Assembly (NCBI RefSeq): GCF_048403405.1
Contig: NZ_CP183129.1
Reading direction: 5' to 3' (one strand)
Origin: Escherichia coli
GTDB taxonomy: Bacteria; Pseudomonadota; Gammaproteobacteria; Enterobacterales; Enterobacteriaceae
Length of the DNA stretch: 64,000 nt
Of the stretch, positions 1,043-55,987 are shown piece after piece. Within the stretch, counting starts at the first letter, position 1. Each line of letters begins with the position of its first letter. A program made the translations under genes and the position numbers. Below the pieces are notes generated by a model. It saw only the letters and a program-made list of their open reading frames with translations, was not told where the DNA came from and searched no databases.

Positions 1043-1127
1043 TGGTGCCGAAGGCCGGACTCGAACCGGCACGTATTTCTACGGTTGATTTTGAATCAAC
1101 TGCGTCTACCGATTTCGCCACTTCGGC
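1043..1127 (-). tRNA. leuX: tRNA-Leu (anticodon CAA)
   Basis: Reverse complement reads GCCGAAGTGGCGAAATCGGTAGACGCAGTTGATTCAAAATCAACCGTAGAAATACGTGCCGGTTCGAGTCCGGCCTTCGGCACCA: long variable arm, CAA anticodon loop, T-loop GGTTCGAGTCC, encoded CCA end. Confidence 0.95.
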
Positions 1128-24013: not shown

Positions 24014-24409
24014 ATGGTAGAAAGAACTCCTGTTTTCCCTGCTGGCCGACATTCACTGTATGCTGAGCATCGTTATTCTGCGGCTATTCGTTCCGGCGAT
24101 TTGCTGTTTGTTTCCGGGCAAGTAGGAAGTCGAGAGGACGGAACACCAGAACCCGATTTTCAGCAACAAGTCAGACTGGCATTTGATAATTTGCATGCGA
24201 CCCTGGCTGCCGCGGGATGCACTTTTGACGATATCATTGATGTTACGAGCTTTCATACCGATCCAGAAAAACAATTTGAAGACATCATGACGGTGAAAAA
24301 TGAAATATTTAGCGCCCCACCTTATCCAACCTGGACGGCGGTGGGCGTTACATGGCTGGCAGGCTTTGATTTTGAAATTAAAGTGATAGCGCGCATCCCT
24401 GAGCTATAA
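24014..24409 (+). CDS. yjgH: RidA/YjgF-family protein
   Basis: ORF 23930-24409; start chosen at MVERTPV (131 aa), assigned by position and by being a second YjgF/RidA-sized ORF in the cluster. Confidence 0.75.
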   Translation: MVERTPVFPAGRHSLYAEHRYSAAIRSGDLLFVSGQVGSREDGTPEPDFQQQVRLAFDNLHATLAAAGCTFDDIIDVTSFHTDPEKQFEDIMTVKNEIFSAPPYPTWTAVGVTWLAGFDFEIKVIARIPEL

Positions 24410-24689
24410 GCAATAGTGTTAGCCGTTCGTTTTCACCCTCCGCCCTATAAGTCGGATGAATGGAATAAAATGCATTTCTGATTGCGTGAAAATGAAAAAG
24501 AAAAAAGCAGGAAATGTCTGCAATTATTGATACCGAACGACACTTCCCCTCCAGAATCATAGAAAATAAAAATGCATATAGTTTGACTTTTAATTCAAAT
24601 AAACCGTTTGCGCCGACAAAATATTGCATCAAATGCTTGCGCTGCTTCTGACGATGAGTATAATGCCGGACAATTTGCCGGGAGGATGT

Positions 24690-24824
24690 ATGGTTCAGTG
24701 TGTTCGACATTTTGTCTTACCGCGTCTGAAAAAAGACGCTGGCCTGCCGTTTTTCTTCCCGTTGATCACCCATTCCCAGCCCCTCAATCGAGGGGCTTTT
24801 TTTTGCCCAGGCGTCAGGAGATAA
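24690..24824 (+). CDS. pyrL: pyrBI operon leader peptide
   Basis: 44-aa ORF MVQCVRHFVLPRLKKDAGLPFFFPLITHSQPLNRGAFFCPGVRR ending 3 nt before pyrB and spanning the attenuator. Confidence 0.85.
   Translation: MVQCVRHFVLPRLKKDAGLPFFFPLITHSQPLNRGAFFCPGVRR
24776..24804 (+). terminator. pyrBI attenuator (intrinsic terminator in the leader)
   Basis: AGCCCCTC-AATC-GAGGGGCT hairpin followed by an 8-T run, inside pyrL. Confidence 0.85.
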
Positions 24825-24827
24825 AAG

Positions 24828-25763
24828 ATGGCTAATCCGCTATATCAGAAACATATCATTTCCATAAACGACCTTAGTCGCGATGACCTTAATCTGGTGC
24901 TGGCGACAGCGGCGAAACTGAAAGCAAACCCGCAACCAGAGCTGTTGAAGCACAAAGTCATTGCCAGCTGTTTCTTCGAAGCCTCTACCCGTACCCGCCT
25001 CTCTTTCGAAACTTCCATGCACCGCCTGGGTGCCAGCGTGGTGGGCTTCTCCGACAGCGCCAATACATCACTGGGTAAAAAAGGCGAAACGCTGGCCGAT
25101 ACCATTTCGGTTATCAGCACTTACGTCGATGCGATAGTGATGCGTCATCCGCAGGAAGGGGCGGCGCGCCTGGCCACCGAATTTTCTGGCAATGTACCGG
25201 TACTGAATGCCGGTGATGGCTCCAACCAACATCCGACGCAAACCTTGCTGGACTTATTCACCATTCAGGAAACCCAGGGGCGTCTGGACAATCTCCACGT
25301 CGCAATGGTTGGTGACCTGAAATATGGCCGCACCGTTCACTCCCTGACTCAGGCGTTAGCGAAGTTCGACGGCAACCGTTTTTACTTCATCGCGCCGGAC
25401 GCGCTGGCAATGCCGCAATACATCCTTGATATGCTCGATGAAAAAGGGATCGCCTGGAGTCTGCACAGCTCTATTGAAGAAGTGATGGCGGAAGTAGACA
25501 TCCTGTACATGACCCGCGTGCAAAAAGAGCGTCTGGACCCGTCCGAGTACGCCAACGTGAAAGCGCAGTTTGTTCTTCGCGCCAGCGATCTTCACAACGC
25601 CAAAGCCAATATGAAAGTGCTGCATCCGCTGCCGCGTGTTGATGAGATTGCGACGGATGTTGATAAAACGCCACACGCCTGGTACTTCCAGCAGGCAGGC
25701 AACGGGATTTTCGCTCGCCAGGCGTTACTGGCACTGGTTCTGAATCGCGATCTGGTACTGTAA
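24828..25763 (+). CDS. pyrB: Aspartate carbamoyltransferase catalytic subunit
   Basis: 311-aa [12 protein letters not shown] and HPLPRV motifs. Confidence 0.97.
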
Positions 25764-25775
25764 GGGGGAATAGAG

Positions 25776-26237
25776 ATGACACACGATAATAAATTGCAGG
25801 TTGAAGCTATTAAACGCGGCACGGTAATTGACCATATCCCCGCCCAGATCGGTTTTAAGCTGTTGAGTTTGTTCAAGCTGACCGAAACGGATCAGCGCAT
25901 CACCATTGGTCTGAACCTGCCTTCTGGCGAGATGGGCCGCAAAGATCTGATCAAAATCGAAAATACCTTTTTGAGTGAAGATCAAGTAGACCAACTGGCA
26001 TTGTATGCACCGCAAGCCACGGTTAACCGTATCGACAACTATGAAGTGGTTGGCAAATCGCGCCCCAGTCTGCCGGAGCGCATCGACAATGTGCTGGTCT
26101 GCCCGAACAGCAACTGTATCAGCCATGCCGAACCGGTTTCTTCCAGCTTTGCCGTGCGAAAACGCGCCAATGACATCGCGCTCAAATGCAAATACTGTGA
26201 AAAAGAGTTTTCCCATAATGTGGTGCTGGCCAATTAA
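25776..26237 (+). CDS. pyrI: Aspartate carbamoyltransferase regulatory subunit
   Basis: 153-aa ORF; C-terminal zinc-binding cysteines CPNSNCISH and CKYCEK. Confidence 0.95.
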
Positions 26238-26901: not shown

Positions 26902-29598
26902 TTACTGCCAGCCGTAACGACGGCTATAGAACCCTTTCACCAACTGGGTTAACGTCATATACCCTGCCAGAATCGCAACCAGCCACGGGAAATAGCTTAA
27001 CGGCAGCGCCTGCAGCTGCAGATAACTGGCCAGCGGTGAAAACGGCAATGCGATCCCGACAATCATCACGATCACGGTCATGATCATTAACGGCCACGAT
27101 GCACAGCTCTGAATAAACGGTACACGACGGGTGCGGATCATATGCACAATCAGCGTTTGCGACAGTAAGCCCACCACAAACCAGCCCGACTGGAACAGCG
27201 TTTGCGTTTCCGGCGTGTTGGCATGGAATACCCACCACATCAGGCAAAACGTCAGAATATCGAAGATCGAGCTGATCGGTCCGAAGAAGATCATAAAGCG
27301 CCCCAGATCCGCCGGATTCCAACGCTGCGGCTTTTGAATTTGCTCGTCGTCGACGTTATCAAACGGGATCGCCACCTGTGACACATCGTACAGCAGGTTC
27401 TGAATAAGCAAGTGTAACGGCAACATCGGCAGGAAGGGCAAGAAAGCACTCGCCACCAGCACGCTGAACACATTACCGAAGTTAGAACTCGCCGTCATTT
27501 TGATGTATTTCAGCATGTTGGCGAAAGTGCGACGTCCCTCAATAACCCCCTCTTCCAGCACCATCAGGCTTTTTTCCAGCAGGATGATATCAGCCGCTTC
27601 ACGGGCAATATCTACCGCGCCGTCCACAGAAATGCCGATATCCGCAGCACGTAAGGCGGGCGCATCATTAATACCATCGCCCATAAAGCCAACCACATGC
27701 CCTTCGCGCTTCAGTAAGGTCACAATGCGTTCTTTATGCATCGGCGTCAGGCGAGCAAACAGCGTGGTGCGCTGTGCGAGATTTGCCAGTTCATCGTCAG
27801 ATAGCGTTTCAATATCACTACCAATGACCACCTCTCCCGCGTCCAGCCCCACTTCATGGCACACTTTCGCTGCAACTAACTCACTGTCGCCAGTAAGGAT
27901 TTTTACGGTAATGCCACTCGCTTTTAATGCCTTCAGTGCCGGAGCAGTTGTCTCTTTTGGCGGATCAAGGAAAGCAATATATCCTTCGAGGATCAGGTCG
28001 GATTCATCCGCTCGCTGGTAATCGCCTTCACGCGCTGGCAGGTATTTCGTCGCCACCGCAACCACGCGCAGCCCCTGACGATTCAGCGTATCAGTAACCC
28101 GCTTAATCTTACGCAGCATGGTGTCATCGAGCGGCACAATCTCGCCATTGTGACGCACCTGCGAACACACATTGAGGATTTCCTGCAATGCGCCTTTGCA
28201 AACCAGCTGATGGTGCTCGGTATTTTCTGCCACTACCACCGACATCCGGCGACGCTCGAAATCAAACGGAATCTCATCAATTTTTTGCCAACGGCTGGCC
28301 AGCGAGCGCGCTGACTCTTCATCCGTACCTTCGAGCACCGCGGTATCAAGCAGGTTTTTAAGTCCGGTCTGGTAATGACTGTTCAACCACGCGCTATGCA
28401 GCACGCGTTCGCTGGTTTTACCGGAGATATCGGTATGATTCTCCAGCACAATTTTGTCCTGCGTCAGGGTGCCGGTTTTATCAGTGCACAGAATATCCAT
28501 TGCGCCAAAGTTCTGAATGGCATCCAGATGCTTGACGATCACTTTCTGTTTCGACAGCTTTACTGCGCCGCGCGCCAGCGTCGAGGTAACAATCATCGGC
28601 AACATTTCTGGCGTTAAGCCTACCGCGACCGAAAGCGCAAACAGTGCCGCTTCCCACCAGTCACCTTTGGTGTAACCGTTGATAAGCAACACCACCGGAG
28701 CCATCACCAGCATAAAGCGAATCAGCAGCATACTGACGCGGCTGATCCCTTGCTGAAAGGCATTCGGCTCGCTTTCCTGCTCACTAACACGCCCCGCCAG
28801 TTGACCAAACCAAGTGTTGGCTCCTGTAGCAATCACCATTGCTTGTGCCGTGCCGCTCACCACGGTGGTGCCCATAAAACACAGGGTGTCGCACTCCAGC
28901 GGATTGCTGTGCTCCGGCTGGCGAGTAGTAGCGGCTTTTTCCACGGGCAGAGACTCACCGGTTAACGACGCCTGAGCGACGAACAGATCCCGCGCCTGCA
29001 AGATACGTAAATCTGCCGGGATCATATCCCCTGCCGCCAGTTTTATAATATCGCCGGGCACCAGCTGGTCGATCGGGATCTCCAGCCAGCCATTTTCGCC
29101 TTTGTCGTTAATTACGCGCAGCACCGTCGCAGTATTGCTGACCATCGCTTTCAGGGCATCTGCCGCTTTAGTGGAACGTGCTTCCTGAATAAAGTTCAGC
29201 AACGTAGAAATAGCGACCATTAGCGCGATAACGCCCGCGGCAAATAAATCTTCCGTGGCGTAAGAAATAGCGCCGAGAATGGTGAGTAAAATATTAAAGG
29301 GGTTGCGATAGCAGACCCATAAATGTACCCACCACGGCGACGGTTGTTGTGCGGGTAATTTATTTTCACCATGTTGTTCGCGGGCAGATTCCACTTCCGC
29401 CTGATTTAATCCCTCCGGATGGGTGTCGAACGTTTTCCACAATTCTTCTTCGGGCATCACCGCCATTTTCAGGCAATGCGCACTTAAGGACGGCGGGACC
29501 GCCGTATTCACTGTCTGCTGCGCGCCAGGCAATGGATCGCGATGAACCAGACGGGAAGGTAAATGGCGAATGAACCGGGTAAAAATTTCTTTAAACAT
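26902..29598 (-). CDS. mgtA: Mg2+-importing P-type ATPase
   Basis: 898-aa ORF; phosphorylation motif CTDKTGTLT and hinge motif GDGINDAPAL. Confidence 0.97.
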   Translation of the reverse strand: MFKEIFTRFIRHLPSRLVHRDPLPGAQQTVNTAVPPSLSAHCLKMAVMPEEELWKTFDTHPEGLNQAEVESAREQHGENKLPAQQPSPWWVHLWVCYRNPFNILLTILGAISYATEDLFAAGVIALMVAISTLLNFIQEARSTKAADALKAMVSNTATVLRVINDKGENGWLEIPIDQLVPGDIIKLAAGDMIPADLRILQARDLFVAQASLTGESLPVEKAATTRQPEHSNPLECDTLCFMGTTVVSGTAQAMVIATGANTWFGQLAGRVSEQESEPNAFQQGISRVSMLLIRFMLVMAPVVLLINGYTKGDWWEAALFALSVAVGLTPEMLPMIVTSTLARGAVKLSKQKVIVKHLDAIQNFGAMDILCTDKTGTLTQDKIVLENHTDISGKTSERVLHSAWLNSHYQTGLKNLLDTAVLEGTDEESARSLASRWQKIDEIPFDFERRRMSVVVAENTEHHQLVCKGALQEILNVCSQVRHNGEIVPLDDTMLRKIKRVTDTLNRQGLRVVAVATKYLPAREGDYQRADESDLILEGYIAFLDPPKETTAPALKALKASGITVKILTGDSELVAAKVCHEVGLDAGEVVIGSDIETLSDDELANLAQRTTLFARLTPMHKERIVTLLKREGHVVGFMGDGINDAPALRAADIGISVDGAVDIAREAADIILLEKSLMVLEEGVIEGRRTFANMLKYIKMTASSNFGNVFSVLVASAFLPFLPMLPLHLLIQNLLYDVSQVAIPFDNVDDEQIQKPQRWNPADLGRFMIFFGPISSIFDILTFCLMWWVFHANTPETQTLFQSGWFVVGLLSQTLIVHMIRTRRVPFIQSCASWPLMIMTVIVMIVGIALPFSPLASYLQLQALPLSYFPWLVAILAGYMTLTQLVKGFYSRRYGWQ

Positions 29599-29738
29599 AA
29601 GGAGTCCCTCCGCACTGTCTGAAACAGTACAGAAATGTCTTCAGGCGTGGCGAAGCCTTACCTGAAGGTAATAAAGCTGAGCTGGGACGTTAAAACGTCA
29701 CGGCCTTACGCATCCGGTAACGCCGTGAAAAGACGGGC

Positions 29739-29792
29739 TTACCGGAAAAGTTTTAATCTCCGTCGAGGGAGAGGCGTGGGATCAGGTTCCAT
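29739..29792 (-). CDS. mgtL: mgtA leader peptide (proline-rich)
   Basis: 17-codon [20 protein letters not shown] in the leader upstream of mgtA. Confidence 0.8.
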
Positions 29793-29976
29793 ATAACCTC
29801 CGGTAAGTGAAAAAAGCGCCGCAAATAATAAGGAGAATCCAATAATATTCGTAGCATCTATGGCGATATAATACCTGCTGGCAACTAAACCAACGATAAA
29901 CCAGACTTTACCCATTGCTGAATGCACGGGTAAAGTTAGGCTCAAATAATTAAACAACACGTTACGGGACAACAGG

Positions 29977-46144: not shown

Positions 46145-46189
46145 AGTTTCCCCCGGTGAAAAGCGTGCGCCCGGTAAGCCAGATAAGAC

Positions 46190-46285
46190 ACAACAGCGTC
46201 GCATCAGGCATCTCGCACAATCGCCGGATGCGGCATAAACACCTTATCCGGCGGCGTACAAGTCGGCATCAGGCATTGATGCCCC
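46190..46285. repeat. REP elements between ytfR and ytfQ
   Basis: CGCCGGATGCGGCATAAACACCTTATCCGGCGGCGTACA and CGGCATCAGGCATTGATGCC. Confidence 0.8.
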
Positions 46286-55810: not shown

Positions 55811-55987
55811 AGTTTTTCATTTATCAGCAGTCTGAATTTTAACCCTCTGGCGGCTTTACAGTACCTTACGCTATACTAGCCACTGAAAATGCCGGTTCAC
55901 TTTCTTCGAATCGGCTTTCAATGTGTATTTCACACAAATTAATCAACTTCCCCTTCCGAGGATCTGGCCTGAAAGGTCGGATAAGAT

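Follow-up and report, generated by a model that had tools for sequence, protein, structure and literature searches.

A leader region identical to that of K-12 pyrL, with its attenuator, upstream of pyrBI in Escherichia coli

What does the short stretch of DNA immediately upstream of pyrB encode, and how might it tie expression of pyrBI to the supply of UTP? We addressed this question in a window of 64,000 nucleotides from Escherichia coli (contig NZ_CP183129.1), the window being the whole stretch of DNA that was analysed. A preliminary description made from the sequence alone had assigned positions 24690-24824 to the pyrL leader peptide and an attenuator preceding pyrBI. The locus is almost certainly the pyrL leader and attenuator of the E. 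coli pyrLBI operon, UTP-sensitive and dependent on the coupling of ribosome and polymerase. This identification follows from identity with K-12, from the annotation of pyrL, pyrB and pyrI, from the Pfam assignment, from the fold of the terminator and from the pattern of the open reading frame (ORF) across species. The system is already known and fully described; the copy in the window is identical to the reference and holds no surprise, and as far as sequence can tell nothing in it speaks against this reading. It is a textbook case of control that needs no repressor, the UTP level being sensed by RNA polymerase itself. The outcome in pyrimidine metabolism is more aspartate transcarbamoylase when UTP is low.

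Direct reading of the plus strand gives an ATG at 24690-24692, 44 sense codons and a TAA at 24822-24824, a span of 135 nt encoding the peptide MVQCVRHFVLPRLKKDAGLPFFFPLITHSQPLNRGAFFCPGVRR. The triplet AAG (24825-24827) separates the pyrL stop codon from the ATG of pyrB (24828-24830), and the leader ORF thus ends 3 nt before the pyrB start. The program-made ORF list contains the same frame with the same end from an upstream TTG (24624-24824); the internal ATG with its Shine-Dalgarno sequence opens the 44-codon form, which equals the 135-nt pyrL CDS of RefSeq. Length and position of the ORF are therefore as first described. The Shine-Dalgarno sequence GGGAGG (24680-24685, plus strand) lies 4 nt 5' of the ATG, and 69 of the 94 unique leader segments taken from other species have this motif. 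By itself, an ORF of 44 codons is within chance expectation. The pyrL ORF is regarded as real because the peptide matches Pfam PF08052 (PyrBI_leader) over its full length (positions 1-44 of 44, 117.1 bits against a cut-off of 25, E = 3.1e-34) and because it is conserved across genera. Its translation signals, GGGAGG and ATG ahead of an ORF that spans the attenuator hairpin, are read from the sequence, and translation has been published for the identical K-12 sequence. On the minus strand, a 110-aa ORF (24378-24710) overlaps the promoter region and carries no annotation in any E. coli record.

The leader is followed by pyrB (24828-25763, plus strand), encoding the catalytic chain of aspartate carbamoyltransferase (311 aa, Pfam OTCace_N and OTCace; annotated by RefSeq at an identical locus), and by pyrI (25776-26237, plus strand), encoding the regulatory chain (153 aa, Pfam PyrI and PyrI_C; RefSeq). 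These domains, together with PF08052 and the RefSeq annotation, bear out the placement of a pyrL attenuator before pyrBI. The probable pyrB Shine-Dalgarno sequence AGGAG (24816-24820, plus strand) lies inside the last pyrL codons and is assigned from its 7-nt spacing to the pyrB ATG. Upstream of pyrL lies yjgH, with its stop at 24409, and pyrB, pyrI and ridA lie 3' of it; the ORFs flanking pyrL-pyrB-pyrI encode RidA-family proteins according to Pfam. In a RefSeq locus of 100% identity the gene order is tabA, bdcR, bdcA, yjgH, pyrL, pyrB, pyrI, ridA, mgtA, and it is likewise so in K-12 MG1655. The K-12 pyrL/pyrBI attenuator (b4246; PF08052) has the same 44-aa peptide and the same order yjgH-pyrL-pyrB-pyrI-ridA with opposing mgtA. 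Between 24645 and 24835 every base of the window is that of the K-12 MG1655 pyrL-pyrB region. The comparison with the published pyrBI leader that had been proposed as a check thus yields base-for-base identity from the -10 box to the pyrB start. Scattered substitutions occur only in the intergenic yjgH-pyrL DNA upstream of approximately 24645 (98% identity over 426 nt), and the functional parts are all alike. With an intact leader identical to that of K-12, pyrBI would be expected to be regulated in the standard way in this strain.

The attenuator (24778-24804, plus strand), located inside the pyrL ORF by terminator scan and folding, consists of an intrinsic terminator hairpin, AGCCCCTC-AATC-GAGGGGCT (24778-24797), and a run of eight T residues (24797-24804). 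Both the GC-rich hairpin within the ORF and the T run that follows it had been noticed before. The terminator scan gives the stem 8 pairs, 6 of them G-C. The hairpin has a predicted folding energy of -15.9 kcal/mol as compared to -5.65 +/- 2.06 for shuffled sequences (z = -4.98), and none of 200 shuffles was as good. Folding of the full leader and of growing prefixes yielded no helix competing for the 5' arm of the terminator, which forms unopposed in these folds. Such folds are as expected if termination is blocked by the ribosome itself and not by an antiterminator hairpin. According to published work the pyrL terminator forms unless a ribosome closely trails the polymerase; insertion of the hairpin reduced a reporter about 18-fold, and a slower ribosome led to still more termination (PMC5021804). 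In the short pyrBI leader it is through pause sites that translation and transcription are coupled (PMC4824070). The scan reported two terminator sites, with 0.7 expected from shuffles. The other is a weak terminator-like site at 24507-24521 on the plus strand, a 5-bp stem GCAGGAAATGTCTGC followed by AATTATTGAT, about 100 nt past the yjgH stop; it could be the terminator of yjgH or a chance occurrence.

Upstream of the attenuator, and still within pyrL, lies a region to which pausing of the polymerase has been attributed. The hairpin GCGTCT-GAAAAA-AGACGC (24722-24739, plus strand), called the pause hairpin in the literature, is located just 5' of a U-rich tract. Its predicted energy is -10.0 kcal/mol (z = -4.91, 0 of 200 shuffles as good). 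The RNAalifold consensus retains it, and at one of its pairs 42 leaders have U-A, 19 U-G and 8 C-G. The U-rich tract TTTTTCTTCCC (24750-24760, plus strand) is read as the codons Phe-Phe-Phe-Pro, and UTP-sensitive pausing is attributed to it in the published model. A T-rich, pyrimidine-rich tract is present at the matching place in most of the 94 unique leaders. In an in vitro study of 2022 the polymerase paused in pyrL about 24 nt 5' of the site assigned earlier, and the pause depended on neither NusA nor a hairpin; mutations that restored the hairpin had no effect on the pause (PMC9291695). The role of the hairpin at 24722-24739 is uncertain for this reason.

A second layer of control is located at the start of transcription. 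The -10 hexamer TATAAT of the pyrBI promoter (24659-24664, plus strand) is a perfect consensus and identical in K-12. It is followed directly by a G+C-rich discriminator, GCCGG (24665-24669), and pyrBI is counted among the stringent promoters with a G+C-rich discriminator (PMC6524683). The probable -35 hexamer TTGCGC (24637-24642, plus strand), assigned from its spacing to the -10 box, agrees with the consensus at three of six positions and is separated from TATAAT by a 16-nt spacer. A consensus promoter scan reported no promoter at pyrL because this hexamer is weak; the location given here relies on the perfect -10 box together with the published start sequence. Seven nucleotides after TATAAT lies AATTTG (24672-24677, plus strand; identical in K-12), which matches exactly the published initially transcribed region of pyrBI, 5'-AATTTG (PMC7039003; PMC6524683), the site of the transcription start and of UTP-sensitive reiterative transcription (stuttering). 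At high UTP the nascent AAUUU slips, gains U residues and is released, and productive initiation is reduced about 7-fold (PMC6524683; PMC7039003). The same kind of control is known from codBA, upp-uraA and pyrG, where a T (or G) run just past the start likewise allows the nucleoside triphosphate level to govern slippage (PMC7039003). Stuttered transcripts are released as non-productive at pyrBI, whereas at pyrG they return to normal elongation. Unlike in this comparison set, reiterative control at pyrBI works alongside an attenuator. The claim of UTP-sensitive attenuation thus stands, supported by K-12 identity and the literature, but as first put it was incomplete, since it left out the promoter, the pause region and the stuttering at AATTTG; these parts lie just upstream of 24690-24824 or in its 5' part.

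Of the mechanism proposed here, the present analysis supplies the anatomy, the K-12 identity, the conservation and the compensatory changes; the UTP-sensitive pausing, the stuttering and the dependence of read-through on the ribosome are taken from published work on the identical sequence. Transcription would begin at the A of AATTTG (24672). At high UTP, slippage on the start-region TTT would lead many initiating polymerases to add extra U residues and let go of the RNA, and those that escape would cross the U-rich tract (24750-24760) without stalling. Hairpin and T run (24778-24804) would then be made before the ribosome on pyrL catches up, the hairpin would form, and transcription would terminate about 25 nt short of pyrB. 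At low UTP the polymerase would stall in the U-rich tract and the ribosome would close the gap behind it. Sitting on the 5' arm of the terminator, the ribosome would keep the hairpin from forming, and the polymerase would read through into pyrB and pyrI. An alternative antiterminator hairpin would be unnecessary. Given the identity of the sequence with that of K-12, we infer that read-through rises under UTP limitation in this strain as well.

The arrangement resembles the attenuators trpL, hisL, pheL and leuL, which like pyrL consist of a short translated leader and an intrinsic terminator before the first structural gene and rely on the coupling of ribosome and polymerase. The signal differs: at pyrL it is the polymerase that slows for lack of UTP, whereas at trpL, hisL, pheL and leuL the ribosome stalls for lack of charged tRNA. 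Moreover, in contrast to these four leaders, the folds of pyrL contain no alternative antiterminator hairpin, and the ribosome masks the terminator.

Folding suggested one further element. A long-range helix is predicted between CGGGAGGA (24679-24686), in the Shine-Dalgarno region of pyrL, and UCUUCCCG (24754-24761), the 3' end of the U-tract. In prefix folding it is the minimum-energy state once about 90 nt have been transcribed. Across 68 distinct leaders, 97.4% of cells keep the potential to pair, solely by way of G-C to G-U changes; among these 68 leaders no double change was found, and RNAalifold dropped the helix. It is conceivable, if rather doubtful, that the leader RNA carries in this helix a timing device that shuts late ribosome loading. 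In that case only an early-initiating ribosome would rescue the transcript, and mRNAs that had been read through would not be translated again at pyrL. Function and coincidence are not separable here, because the changes are of the G-U type only and both partners are conserved for other reasons. Without double changes, we do not claim the helix as an established element.

How far the arrangement extends beyond E. coli was examined by a DNA-pattern scan for the pyrB N-terminus MANPLY[QH]KHIIS, which returned 120 loci, mostly from Enterobacterales. At least 260 nt upstream of pyrB were available for 114 of the 120, which together with the window gives 115 upstream regions. A hairpin with a T run occurs within 130 nt of pyrB in 107 of them (about 93%). 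The leader ORF stops in the loop of the hairpin in 61 loci (Salmonella, Citrobacter, Klebsiella, Raoultella, Buttiauxella, Yersinia, Serratia and others) and past the T run in 28 (Escherichia and some others). It continues beyond the pyrB ATG in about 15-16 loci, mostly to end at the TAA of ATGGCTAA, and stops 5' of the hairpin in only 2. That the ORF nearly always reaches the hairpin is the pattern needed by a mechanism of masking by the ribosome, and the positions of the stop codons fit a model where a ribosome reaching the terminator is what counts. In Salmonella and Citrobacter the leader has about 33 aa and its stop codon lies inside the attenuator loop, whereas in E. coli it has 44 aa and ends 3 nt before pyrB. 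Common to both are the promoter-proximal sequence, the Shine-Dalgarno sequence, the N-terminal peptide, the upstream hairpin, the U-tract, the GCCCCTC/GAGGGGC stem, the T run and a distance of about 30 nt to pyrB. A single base of the loop sets them apart, AATT (TGA) in Salmonella and Citrobacter as compared to AATC (CGA) in E. coli (window 24786-24792). With TGA in place of CGA, the Salmonella and Citrobacter leader ends inside the hairpin.

Pluralibacter and Yersinia depart from the usual frame or spacing. In Pluralibacter gergoviae (L017, 260 nt upstream of pyrB) leader ORF and pyrB share one frame with no stop between them, so that translation of the leader would run into pyrB; the terminator hairpin has 19 nt rather than 18, and the fused frame could be real or an assembly error. 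In Yersinia species (L005, L011, L027, L028, L066, L085, L092, L103, L104 and L122) hairpin and T run lie 95 to about 210 nt upstream of pyrB rather than about 31 nt, which suggests that extra sequence was inserted between attenuator and pyrB.

The frame across the hairpin varies by genus (QPLNRGAFF, SPSIEGLFF) while the nucleotides GCCCCTC...GAGGGGC are kept; it is thus the RNA and not the peptide that is constrained there. All 94 unique homologous terminator stems are fully paired, with a standard pair at every position upon per-sequence folding. Next to the loop, 69 of the 94 have a C-G pair and 19 a U-A pair, a compensatory change of C-G to U-A, and outgroups show further double changes. 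Over the whole structure 32 double-change cells were counted, above all 500 shuffles of a control that leaves phylogenetic relatedness in. The support from covariation is real but thin, because most stem pairs never vary. Terminator covariation was taken from per-sequence folding instead of the MAFFT alignment, in which leaders with 3-nt loops and those with 4-nt loops are out of register in the terminator's 5' arm, which lowers the figures for helix 4. The alignment of 69 leaders was selected on TTTGCC..GGAGG, and the invariance of those columns is circular and not evidence.

These comparisons bear on the possibility that regulation is exerted by the PyrL peptide as such, either in cis at the ribosome, in the manner of TnaC, or in trans. 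The N-terminal two-thirds of the peptide, MVQCVRH.VLPRLK.DAGLPFFFP, are indeed well conserved in Enterobacteriaceae, as such a role would lead one to expect. Yet the stretch of conserved N-terminal codons shares its bases in part with the upstream hairpin and the U-tract, both of them constrained as nucleic acid, and the C-terminal part varies by genus in length, frame and stop position while the RNA hairpin is kept. The leader peptides of Yersinia, Serratia and Erwinia are unrelated in sequence, yet they too end in the hairpin. Moreover, the dependence of the terminator on the ribosome has been reproduced with the leader fused behind foreign sequence (PMC5021804). A peptide effector is very improbable on these grounds.

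Within E. coli, attenuation by the pyrL leader can be weighed against a simpler origin of the hairpin and T run as the terminator of yjgH, with the 44-codon ORF as a chance frame. A 341-nt leader query matched 5424 of 5426 complete E. coli genomes, which annotate it, beside pyrB, as "pyrL: pyr operon leader peptide". Over the 176-nt segment between the -10 box and the pyrB ATG, identity is 99% or more in 5416 of the 5424. When the upstream spacer is included, most genomes match at 95-99%, and in about 600 the match does not start until the -10 box; the DNA just 5' of the leader is far more variable or wholly replaced. Terminator and yjgH do lie on the same strand, and chance frames of 44 codons in 135 nt are not uncommon. 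The terminator, however, is located about 370 nt past the yjgH stop (24409), 3' of a perfect TATAAT and the published start region, and in the roughly 600 E. coli genomes in which yjgH is replaced leader and terminator are unchanged. In addition, an ORF with Shine-Dalgarno sequence and ATG recurs across genera, nearly always reaching the hairpin, and matches a Pfam family. That the structure merely ends yjgH is hardly credible. In the genomes concerned (about 600 of 5424) the place of yjgH, bdcA and bdcR upstream of pyrL is taken by an arginine-repressor paralogue and a YfcC-family gene. These genomes diverge sharply just 5' of TGAGTATAAT with the leader itself unchanged, and their -35 region reads TTGATC as compared to TTGCGC in the window (window 24560-24658 compared with L003:1436-1500 and L004:1436-1500).

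Control by an RNA-binding protein or riboswitch-like element, as with PyrR of Bacillus, or amino-acid-sensing attenuation at Phe-Phe-Phe can be dismissed with near certainty: the three successive Phe codons (24750-24758) superficially resemble a control run of the pheL type, but they are the U-tract itself, and relatives keep T/C-rich DNA there in different contexts, and the weak, sub-threshold match to the Rfam family Trp_leader reaches 19.7 bits against a gathering score of 41, with no antiterminator helix on the 5' arm of the terminator in full or prefix folds.

No PyrR element was found with Rfam, either at the gathering score in the window or at E values up to 1 in 24400-24900. The permissive matches in 24400-24900 (Chlorobi-1, Hrs1, Trp_leader, suhB and STnc100) all fall on the terminator hairpin and were rejected as chance. 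At the gathering score no Rfam family covers the pyrBI leader in the whole window. Elsewhere in the window, matches above the gathering score are a tRNA, Ysr276, naRNA4, STnc450 and ES239, located at 1046-1127 (minus strand), 12099-12293 (minus), 46177-46253 (minus), 55869-55926 (plus) and 60498-60620 (minus). A Magnesium-II riboswitch aptamer (125.8 bits) at 29692-29807 on the minus strand lies in the leader of mgtA, which encodes an 898-aa P-type ATPase (26902-29598, minus strand); this aptamer is the known Mg2+-sensing leader of mgtA.
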